DNA from: a virus
Taxonomy: Duplodnaviria; Heunggongvirae; Uroviricota; Caudoviricetes
Virus record (IMG/VR): IMGVR_UViG_2913123054_000001
Coordinates: 1-23,928 of that record
Length of the DNA stretch: 23,928 bases
Strand: one strand, 5' to 3'
Under the pieces are notes generated by a model that saw only the letters and a program-made list of their open reading frames with translations, was not told the origin of the DNA and ran no database searches. Positions within the stretch are counted from its first letter, which is position 1. Each line of letters begins with the position of its first letter. The translations under genes were made by a program, and so were the position numbers. Below, in pieces: positions 105 through 20,461 of this stretch.

Positions 105-266
105 ACTTTAACAGATCAAGTTTTAGCCGATTCGCCAATTAAACCGACCTTCGTTTGTTGATAAGCGGGTATGCCTGACTAGAATCGATTCACTTAAGTA
201 GCGCGCAGGGATAAGAGGGATGGACTCCTCTTTGGGGAGATGTTTAAAGTCCACAGGATTTTTACT

Positions 267-434
267 ATGAATGATAAGGAATTGATTATTGCGCTTTCTT
301 TACCAGGTCACTACGAAGTGATAACCCTCGAAAGCGGTGAGTTTATTGTAACGCCATTACCGCCAGATGCTATTCTAATTAGCAAAGAATCACATGCAGA
401 TTCTGCAAGTCACTTCTGTATCAAAGAAGACTAA
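267..434 (+). CDS. Small hypothetical protein (about 55 aa) in an AT-rich island
   Basis: ORF-track frame 240..434; ATG at 267 has AGGA about 9 nt upstream, while ATG at 240 has no usable spacing. The 121-490 segment is visibly AT-rich compared with the phage genes. No motif recognised. Confidence 0.35.
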   Translation: MNDKELIIALSLPGHYEVITLESGEFIVTPLPPDAILISKESHADSASHFCIKED

Positions 435-493
435 ATTATACTGGTAATGCCAGCCTGAACACCTGGCACCTGTCGCACCATTACGAGGTAGTA

Positions 494-19711: not shown

Positions 19712-20437
19712 GTGAGCAGGCTTGCGATAACCACAATCGTATTTTCTCTTTTTTTAACTTCATGTAGTTGGGATCCTAATGGTGCTAAAGCGCAGGAAAA
19801 ATGGCTATCCCAAAAAAATGAAGAAAAACAAGCGTACGATAAGCAAGTTGAGGAGAGCCAGAAAAGCAGGCTTCAAATACAGCGCGAAGAAAAGTCTCAA
19901 TTTGAAGTTTCACATCCAGAGGTTATCGTTGCTGGTGTTGGGAACGAGCTTACAAGTAAGGGTGCAGAATCTTTGCGAGATGCGTACAACAGCATTCCAT
20001 TCGTAACTCGTTATCCGGGAACCACGGACCCTAACAAAGTTTATACCTATGTCGGTGACTACAAATTAAATTTGCAACTGGTTAACACATCTGTGCTTTC
20101 TCAGATCTCAGATTGCAAACGCATTTCAGCGTATGCCGATGTTGATATTAATCGTACTTGCTTCAATCAAATTGGAAATGATTTGAGTTTGTTTGCATCT
20201 GTAATTAAAGACAAAAATATTACCGGAATTGCAAAAAAAGCAGCTCTACGAGACTCAACTTACGGAACCAAAATTGATTTTGGTCATGCTGCGCGTTTAG
20301 CAAAAATGCATGCCACTTTATGCCAAAAGCAGGGCGGTAAAGGATTTGTCAAAATGTCGACTGTAGCTGTGCCTTGCGGCTCTTCAGGCGATGTAATTAA
20401 CTATCGAAGCGCCGGTAAGATGGGGCTTATAAACTGA
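19712..20437 (+). CDS. AT-rich moron: predicted lipoprotein (241 aa; lipobox LTSC; Lys/Glu/Gln-rich linker followed by a Cys-containing globular domain), function unknown
   Basis: GTG start with GAGGTG RBS at 19696-19701; N-terminus MSRLAITTIVFSLFLTSC is a type II signal peptide with Ser at +2. The first 60 nt are about 38% G+C and the whole gene looks markedly AT-rich against its neighbours; followed by its own strong terminator. Confidence 0.7.
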   Translation: MSRLAITTIVFSLFLTSCSWDPNGAKAQEKWLSQKNEEKQAYDKQVEESQKSRLQIQREEKSQFEVSHPEVIVAGVGNELTSKGAESLRDAYNSIPFVTRYPGTTDPNKVYTYVGDYKLNLQLVNTSVLSQISDCKRISAYADVDINRTCFNQIGNDLSLFASVIKDKNITGIAKKAALRDSTYGTKIDFGHAARLAKMHATLCQKQGGKGFVKMSTVAVPCGSSGDVINYRSAGKMGLIN

Positions 20438-20461
20438 AAAGATCAAATTAGTCACATAAAA

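Follow-up and report, generated by a model that had tools for sequence, protein, structure and literature searches.

ORF55, a small conserved gene in the rem slot of Escherichia coli prophages, probably encodes an antirepressor

The ORF55 locus

The object of this analysis is a small gene, here called ORF55, of a tailed phage genome (IMG/VR record IMGVR_UViG_2913123054_000001), positions 1 to 23,928 of which make up the window, that is, the whole stretch of DNA that was analysed. The open reading frame (ORF) runs from position 267 to 434 and encodes a protein of 55 amino acids (aa; MNDKELIIALSLPGHYEVITLESGEFIVTPLPPDAILISKESHADSASHFCIKED) that is predicted to be a small antirepressor. Like all stranded features described below, it lies on the plus strand. 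An original prediction, made from the letters of the window, had described an AT-rich island at 121-490 that carries a small orphan ORF and is bracketed by a strong terminator, and had considered it to be either a second small moron or a regulatory peptide. The ORF is present at 267-434 with a translation identical to the one quoted, and its placement in a nin-like region also holds, ORF55 being located upstream of a DUF1367 gene (494-1093; Pfam DUF1367, E = 2e-96), a YbcO gene (1093-1383), and a gene for a DUF1133 Q-like antiterminator (1380-1922), which is followed by lysis and morphogenesis genes. The island is real, with a guanine plus cytosine (GC) content of 0.427 in 121-490 against 0.512 in the window (the 2.6th percentile of 370-nucleotide (nt) windows) and 0.387 in ORF55 itself, but it is a modest one. 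A lower-GC stretch (0.38-0.40), the lowest of the window, is found at about 19850-20450, inside an ORF of 241 aa (19712-20437) among the tail genes.

ORF55 is a real gene under strong purifying selection, as judged from the ratio of nonsynonymous to synonymous substitution rates (dN/dS) and from the distribution of changes over the codon. Among six distinct homologous DNA sequences, pairwise dN/dS values range from 0.07 to 0.25, with dS from 0.56 to saturation, and the variable columns of the alignment fall on codon positions 1, 2, and 3 in the proportion 19/15/36. The other two frames of the same DNA contain 3 to 8 stop codons each. It had been asked earlier whether the segment might be a piece of a larger gene in relatives; it is instead a stand-alone gene of fixed length. 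A 64-aa in-frame form initiated from an ATG at 240 was considered and rejected, as this start is not conserved, an in-frame start further upstream being absent from both the relative L008 and the Klebsiella homologue. Structurally, the AlphaFold2 model of the protein (predicted local distance difference test (pLDDT) score of 72) is made up of a helix at residues 3-11, a β-hairpin at 16-30 (strands 16-20 and 26-30), and a disordered tail. A Foldseek search with this model returned nothing below E = 2, and a sequence-profile search of the PDB returned nothing below E = 0.4.

The description of ORF55 as an orphan does not survive comparison with other genomes. Its family forms 12 clusters at 90% identity in E. 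coli and Shigella and 9 clusters in Klebsiella and Raoultella, the latter being 28-38% identical to the window protein and mostly of the same length. The protein also matches phrog_34610, a group of unknown function, with E = 5e-33. A profile search on the peptide, one of the checks that had been proposed, found family members, including about 30 further short relatives of 40-75 aa (representatives at 50% identity, drawn from 1.84 billion proteins). Scans of Pfam, NCBIfam, and PADLOC yielded no family for ORF55, the Pfam copy used being one that lacks PF27490, which covers the antirepressor Rem discussed below. No description of the 55-aa class turned up in the literature searched. At the DNA level, a search with 105-493 as the query hit about 2,550 members of a set of 5,426 complete E. 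coli genomes; the exact DNA of the window is not in this set, with a best match of 88%. One relative of ORF55, and only one, gave a marginal match to CarboxypepD_reg-like. Long repetitive proteins of up to 3,391 aa (P0024, P0028, P0030, and others) also appeared in the profile search and were rejected as family members, being motif-level noise. Their matches are repeated stretches of 20-30 residues with a PGxYxV..G.F.V β-hairpin motif, and the similarity is probably one of motif only.

Upstream border and promoter

The upstream border of the unit is the 3' untranslated end of the mRNA of hokD, a type I toxin gene of the Hok/Gef family, together with its intrinsic terminator (1-104). The terminator has a G+C-rich stem of 7 base pairs (bp) at 83-100 and a T-run that extends to 104, as found with a terminator scan, and so the strong terminator reported upstream of the ORF is indeed present and marks the end of the hokD mRNA. 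The alignment with relatives is nearly invariant over 8-103, and in RefSeq relatives hokD or a Hok/Gef protein is annotated directly upstream of the matching DNA. All E. coli instances examined lie 220-430 nt downstream of a Hok/Gef gene, and in the window ORF55 starts 163 nt after the hokD terminator. To call the segment bracketed is an overstatement, because the terminator stands on the upstream side only; between ORF55 and the next gene there is none. In the Klebsiella phage Kp4882-1, a terminator at L006:2473-2497 has a stem-loop (CCCGCTTCGGCGGGTTTTTT) identical to that of hokD, with no hok gene before it.

Between the hokD terminator and the promoter lies a variable spacer (105-157; no strand assigned), which serves as a cargo insertion site in relatives. 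The region upstream of the leader occurs in six unrelated sequence versions. In O157:H7 prophages a phd-like gene and a Doc toxin gene are found as a pair between hokD and the leader (L002:3222-3905), and in one metagenomic contig the Kiwa defence genes KwaA and KwaB are located directly upstream of hok (L007:546-2185). The L009 lineage carries at this spacer a 235-nt insert with a LexA box (L009:2665-2900).

A look for promoter elements in 121-266 had been proposed, and a sigma-70-type promoter can be recognised there at 158-185, with TTGATA at 158-163, a 16-nt spacer, and TAGAAT at 180-185. This predicted promoter agrees with the consensus at 10 of 12 positions, and no other promoter-like site occurs in 1-1200. 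TAGAAT, with TTGAnn some 16-18 nt upstream of it, is kept in the six upstream versions that were inspected (56 unique sequences). Because TAGAAT persists across six otherwise unrelated upstream versions, the promoter probably works.

A conserved leader and its three alternative genes

The promoter is separated from ORF55 by a conserved leader of about 75 nt (192-266), the predicted 5' untranslated region (UTR) of its mRNA. The leader contains a conserved core motif (TAGCGCGCAGGGATAAGAGGGATGG) at 199-223, a small G/C hairpin at 225-239 in which CUCCUC (225-230) pairs with GGGGAG (234-239), and the Shine-Dalgarno sequence of ORF55, AGGA at 255-258, with 8-nt spacing. In the Qin prophage of K-12, the DNA before rem shows about 85% identity to the leader core (window 172-228). 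Rfam holds no family that matches the leader. The exact leader motif was found in 133 instances, gathered from an exact-motif scan of viral contigs and from the loci of the other comparisons, and each of them precedes Rem, a shortened Rem (Rem-short), or ORF55. Rem (83-87 aa) is the majority among the leader-linked ORFs, the others being the 57-aa Rem variant (MKIEELREIFSEDGLYAVRVENGGITYTALIPDDHVVLSVEAFIEYLERLGFKVVRE) and ORF55.

In each of the 28 sequence variants the leader is predicted to form a hairpin of 4-6 bp with a loop of 3-7 nt. The arrangement of a C-tract (225-230) between two G-tracts (208-223 and 234-239) permits two different pairings, which would give two alternative hairpins. 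Inspected by eye, the changes in the hairpin are mostly one-sided or register shifts, with few true two-sided compensatory changes, and for this reason it is described here as a conserved potential and not as a proven structure. In strain 21B8, the unit ATAAGAGGGATGGCCCCC is tandemly duplicated within the leader (L004:2540-2600).

The leader also contains an upstream ORF of 16 codons (220-270) whose TGA overlaps the start of ORF55 as ATGA in the window. Its ATG at 220 has no spacing from the Shine-Dalgarno-like AAGAGGG, and its reading as a leader peptide was rejected, since neither frame nor length is conserved in relatives. A similar TGATG overlap is seen in several Rem-type leaders. The idea that further leader copies act as operators elsewhere in the prophage was likewise dropped; the sole match was a chance 13-mer in a coding region of L021.

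The slot behind the shared promoter and leader is always filled in relatives, by Rem, by the 57-aa Rem-short, or by ORF55, and is never empty. Comparison of nin regions for presence or absence of the segment, as had been proposed, thus shows it not to be optional, as relatives carry Rem or Rem-short behind the same leader. Since alternative alleles stand behind one leader and the 3' border is defined, the segment is best seen as one exchangeable cassette at a fixed locus and not as an insertion.

The downstream border

The 3' border of the conserved cassette is a 10-bp hairpin (GCACCAUUAC / GUAGUGGUGC) at 475-500, which holds the Shine-Dalgarno sequence of the next gene (GAGG, 485-488) in its loop and the GTG start of that gene (494) in its 3' arm. 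The fold of 425-510 has a free energy of -25.8 kcal/mol (z = -2.6), and none of 200 shuffled sequences was as stable. A terminator scan was negative for 434-494, the hairpin lacking a T-run, and the DUF1367 gene probably shares a transcript with ORF55. When the DUF1367 context is compared with the DUF968 contexts (21B8, L008), homology ends right after GTGGTGCAT, in the first codons of the following gene. The gene after ORF55-family members varies, being DUF1367, a 92-aa protein, or NinG. The hairpin accompanies the ORF55 cassette both before DUF1367 and before the 92-aa phrog_1212 gene (L004, about 2843-2868). After rem in K-12 (L003, about 2880-2915) the sequence is a different one and the layout is the same, with GUGCCA...UGGCAC around the AUG. 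This layout suggests translational control of the downstream gene.

Resemblance to antirepressor loci

Gifsy prophages have short repressors that do not undergo cleavage. Small antirepressors encoded outside the immunity region bind these repressors and thereby inactivate them (PMC3121763). In these prophages a terminator-like palindrome comes first and is followed by a LexA box, a dinI homologue, the antirepressor as a small ORF with a GUG start, and an irsA homologue (PMC3121763), and a single antirepressor is able to act on repressors that are heteroimmune (Lemire et al. 2011, PMC3121763). Rem of E. coli came to light when the Gifsy antirepressors were used as the starting point of iterated searches, and the signal that induces rem was stated to be unknown (PMC10448788). 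Expression of Rem raises transcription from the DicA-repressed promoter dicBp 165-fold (Ragunathan et al. 2023, PMC10448788).

ORF55 has the placement of such a small antirepressor. It encodes fewer than 100 aa, follows a terminator, and lies between replication genes and Q, outside the immunity region; in contigs that encode the identical 55-aa protein, replication genes are found upstream. Similar layouts occur in the phages mEp237 and SEN34 and in the Klebsiella phage ST846-OXA48phi9.2, where a LexA box with 17 of 20 matching positions, dinI, an ORF of 77-82 aa, and a DUF1367 gene follow one another. The small ORF begins with GTG in mEp237 and ST846 and with TTG, as annotated, in SEN34, and the mEp237 record describes its DUF1367 gene as 'similar to Gifsy-2 STM1020'. 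Given the layout of these three phages, the order in the window, a small ORF followed by DUF1367, corresponds to the order antirepressor-then-irsA, and by synteny the DUF1367 gene would be the counterpart of the Gifsy irsA homologue. The dinI-linked small ORFs and Rem both belong to phrog_340.

Members of the ORF55 family itself are found in a Gifsy-like setting in Klebsiella. In phage Kp4882-1, and in contigs with an ORF55 homologue for which the assembly collection has 776 index blocks, one finds in succession a terminator, a TTGACC -35 element, a LexA box (TACTGTTTATTTATACAGT[GA]), dinI, the ORF55 homologue, and NinG. The LexA box overlaps the -10 element, and the terminator stem has the sequence of the hok one. 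Within E. coli, the lineage comprising L009-L012, L144, and L145 has a LexA box with 17 of 20 matching positions (TACTGTAATTGTATACAGTA) located 235 nt upstream of ORF55, and in this lineage the usual -10 element has decayed to CGGAAT. The closest relatives of the window (L001, L004, L008, and L018-L021) have no LexA box, and there is none at rem of K-12. The Gifsy antirepressors GfoA, GfhA, and GftA resemble ORF55 in being small, in following a terminator-like palindrome, and in preceding an irsA homologue, and the Klebsiella branch of the family reproduces the series of LexA box, dinI, and small ORF; the window differs from Gifsy in lacking dinI and the LexA box at this site.

A close parallel is Rem of the K-12 Qin prophage. 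Both genes occupy the slot after the hokD terminator and before the genes that lead to Q, both are preceded by a homologous TAGAAT promoter and leader without a LexA box, and both are associated with a short repressor consisting of a helix-turn-helix (HTH) protein only. The two proteins are small and have a similar N-terminal segment of a helix and a β-hairpin (MNxxEL...G.Y.V...G). They differ in length (83-87 vs 55 aa), in phrog (340 vs 34610), in their C-terminal halves, and in the C-terminal subtype of the associated repressor.

Sequence relationship to Rem

Direct comparison of ORF55 with Rem by BLASTP found nothing, and a profile comparison (hhalign) of the ORF55 family with Rem and the dinI-linked ORFs gave a probability of 53% (E = 1.3e-4) that covers the N-terminal 26 residues only. 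The connection is closer through Rem-short, a 57-aa protein that is annotated as rem in phage Rac-SA53 and is present in O157:H7 prophages. ORF55 matches Rem-short over its full length in BLASTP (E = 0.005, 30% identity) and the ORF55 family matches it at 86% in hhalign (E = 5e-6, 49 columns), ORF55 and Rem-short sharing the segment L-[IP]-P-D-x-x-[VI]-L-S-x-E. Rem-short in turn matches the Rem/GfoA-type proteins at 98.8% (hhalign, E = 1e-16), 'GfoA-type' being a label assigned by position (dinI, GTG-start ORF, DUF1367) and by phrog_340 and not by comparison with the GfoA and GftA sequences, and it matches gp49 of mEp237 by BLASTP (E = 4e-7). Rem-short is essentially Rem minus 24 internal residues and bridges ORF55 and Rem. 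It shares with ORF55 the leader, the slot, a similar length, and, in O157, also the downstream DUF1367 gene; it differs in keeping the Rem N-terminus and the GfoA-like C-terminal FxxxLxRLGFKV, a motif that ORF55 does not have. The proteins at the Gifsy position in mEp237 and SEN34 (77-82 aa, GTG start) are related to ORF55 only through Rem-short. Taken together at the sequence level, a remote common ancestry of ORF55 and Rem is probable.

Repressor partners

The immunity region had to be read from contigs that encode the identical protein, because the exact DNA of the window does not occur in the complete E. coli genomes. In these contigs a repressor of 162 or 129 aa that is composed of an HTH domain only is found about 8 kb upstream, divergent from ydaS/ydaT-like genes, and distant members of the family are accompanied by repressors of the same build with 127, 131, 133, and 161 aa. 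These ORF55-linked repressors of 127-162 aa contain HTH_3 or Phage_CI_repr domains only and no Peptidase_S24 domain.

The C-terminus of these repressors follows a common pattern. The signature PP[VI]E-x-[KR]NML-x-AF-x-MRL is present in 15 of 15 ORF55-family loci with a visible repressor, from two genera, and in none of 112 Rem-type loci. The HTH domains with which it is combined belong to at least three clearly distinct types (R127/129, R131/161/162, and R133 of Klebsiella). The best-matching type in all 34 loci that have an 8x-class Rem and a repressor in view is DicA, mostly with the C-terminus LPxSEQ...E[LM]RARV, while Rem-short goes with a third, RacR-like repressor C-terminus (LPESEKAKLIERLK; two loci with a visible repressor). 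Recognition of the repressor's C-terminal domain by the small protein would be expected to produce a pairing of this kind. The Rem-type viral contig L122 encodes a repressor that is 28% identical to DicA and whose C-terminus (LPGSEQQRMIELFEVRLKEIDEYVEKY) looks intermediate between the DicA-associated and ORF55-associated types; it is possibly an exception to the pairing rule or a bridge within it.

A probable mechanism and its difficulties

We consider it probable that ORF55 is a small antirepressor of the kind represented by Rem and by GfoA and GftA of Gifsy. The promoter at 158-185 would transcribe the leader, ORF55, and probably the DUF1367-YbcO-Q genes. The 55-aa protein would then bind the C-terminal domain of a short, non-cleavable HTH repressor of the DicA/RacR/GfoR type with the PP[VI]E subtype, and the bound repressor would leave its operators so that the early lytic genes are turned on. 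Of the two functions originally offered for the peptide, a regulatory role would thus be retained, in the form of an antirepressor protein and not of a leader peptide.

Several observations weigh against this assignment. The C-terminal RLG[FY][KR]V of Rem-short and the GfoA-type proteins is missing from ORF55, and the homology to Rem and GfoA is remote and partly transitive, with a direct profile match limited to the 26 residues mentioned above and with the positional definition of 'GfoA-type' entering the comparison. The structures add little: the ORF55 model is of intermediate confidence and has no informative fold match, and the AlphaFold model of Rem is poor (pLDDT 57) and agrees with ORF55 only in the order of a helix followed by strands. 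The repressors were read in relatives and in contigs with the identical ORF, the window itself being without an immunity region. The pairing of small protein and repressor may in part reflect shared ancestry of genes that are about 8 kb apart, and the loci are not independent. Selection is favoured over mere linkage because the ORF55 class occurs with different HTH domains, replication genes, upstream versions, and downstream modules.

Regulation of the gene poses a further difficulty. The window contains no LexA box in 1-500, and its promoter has a constitutive appearance; for a gene that induces lysis this is awkward, unless control is exerted through the leader. Because the promoter looks strong and is without a LexA box, control would have to lie elsewhere, and the conserved leader is the obvious candidate. 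Such a promoter-leader unit, without a LexA box, is present in roughly half of complete E. coli genomes. Tentatively, the unit at 158-266 may represent a kind of cis-regulatory element that has not been described before, working as an RNA switch or recognised by some host factor. It would set the trigger by which Rac/Qin-type prophages are induced independently of LexA, and the three ORF classes would be specificity alleles for three repressor C-terminal domains. This broader proposal is considered rather unlikely.

Alternative explanations

Alternatively, the product of ORF55 may be a small moron-like accessory protein that the lysogen makes from the gene's own promoter and that acts in host modulation, superinfection exclusion, or anti-defence, with no role towards the repressor. 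A predicted promoter directly after a terminator, a GC content below that of the flanks, and a neighbourhood that gathers cargo such as the Doc toxin pair and Kiwa are all in keeping with this, and so is the lack of a match in Pfam, NCBIfam, PADLOC, or fold searches. However, the moron layout of promoter, gene, and terminator is not found here, because a downstream terminator is lacking, and the moron or cargo reading of the original prediction also lacks an empty site in relatives. Instead, alternative alleles, among them a proven antirepressor, occupy the slot behind a common promoter and leader, and the Klebsiella homologues belong to a LexA-dinI operon. A strict link to one repressor C-terminal subtype would not be expected of generic cargo either, and an accessory role is therefore regarded as rather unlikely.

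It is also conceivable that ORF55 acts in cis as an upstream ORF, its translation controlling the DUF1367-YbcO-Q genes through the hairpin at 475-500 or by blocking Rho termination. The hairpin, with the DUF1367 Shine-Dalgarno sequence and start, belongs to the conserved cassette, an analogous hairpin follows rem in K-12, and orf45 of Gifsy-1 acts in such a way on anrP (PMC4825925). Against this, strong conservation is seen in the amino-acid sequence and not in the reading frame alone, both in the low dN/dS values given above and across genera at about 33% identity and fixed length. A distance of 40 nt separates the stop codon from the hairpin, which a terminating ribosome would not reach, and the downstream gene differs between contexts (DUF1367, the 92-aa protein, or NinG). 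A purely cis-acting role is on these grounds improbable.

A function linked to hok, for instance as a modulator or immunity factor, could be read from the Hok/Gef gene that precedes every E. coli instance examined. Rem and Rem-short have the same hok linkage, though, and the linkage is for that reason taken as synteny of the region; in addition, the hok terminator separates the two units and the Klebsiella homologues have dinI and not hok upstream. Loci of the hok type are controlled by Sok antisense RNA, which also speaks against such a factor, and we regard this explanation as very improbable. That ORF55 is a chance ORF of an AT-rich intergenic spacer, as its shortness, its weak Shine-Dalgarno sequence (AGGA at 8-nt spacing), and a database annotation that goes no further than 'hypothetical' might suggest, is in practice refuted by the codon-position pattern and dN/dS and by a length of 55 aa that is fixed across about 40 diverged relatives in several genera.

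Significance

In many prophages of E. coli, Shigella, and Klebsiella, some of them from pathogenic lineages, the repressor is short and not cleavable by RecA. What induces such prophages is determined by small antirepressors, most of which have no annotation. Should ORF55 be a third class of antirepressor at the rem locus that is matched to a repressor C-terminal subtype of its own, an annotation gap would be filled for phrog_34610, now a 'hypothetical protein', and it would become predictable which co-resident prophages cross-induce one another. Rem, Rem-short, and ORF55 would also constitute an allelic series for mapping the specificity between repressor and antirepressor. The shared leader without a LexA box makes the question of the inducing signal of rem a concrete and testable one. 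The value of the finding lies in annotation and in work on repressor-antirepressor specificity; it is not a new principle.

Comparison with IsrK and orf45

The region shows some likeness to the IsrK-orf45-anrP system of Gifsy-1, in which translation of an upstream ORF, orf45, controls anrP (Hershko-Shalev et al. 2016, PMC4825925). In both cases a short structured RNA with a terminator at its end precedes a small ORF, and the Q-region genes lie further downstream. However, orf45 starts about 17 nt after the terminator, overlaps anrP by AUGA, and encodes a peptide that is not conserved (PMC4825925), whereas ORF55 starts 163 nt after the terminator and has its own predicted promoter and a conserved protein sequence. 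The Rfam model of isrK (RF01394) matches 23-104 of the window with 24.5 bits (E = 0.017), far below its gathering score of 50. The analogy was rejected, the match being sub-threshold and located on generic hairpins of the hokD 3' UTR, and the architecture being different. In Gifsy-1, IsrK likewise has a small ORF and an antirepressor gene downstream of it in the Q-proximal region; this is probably a coincidence of two hairpins.

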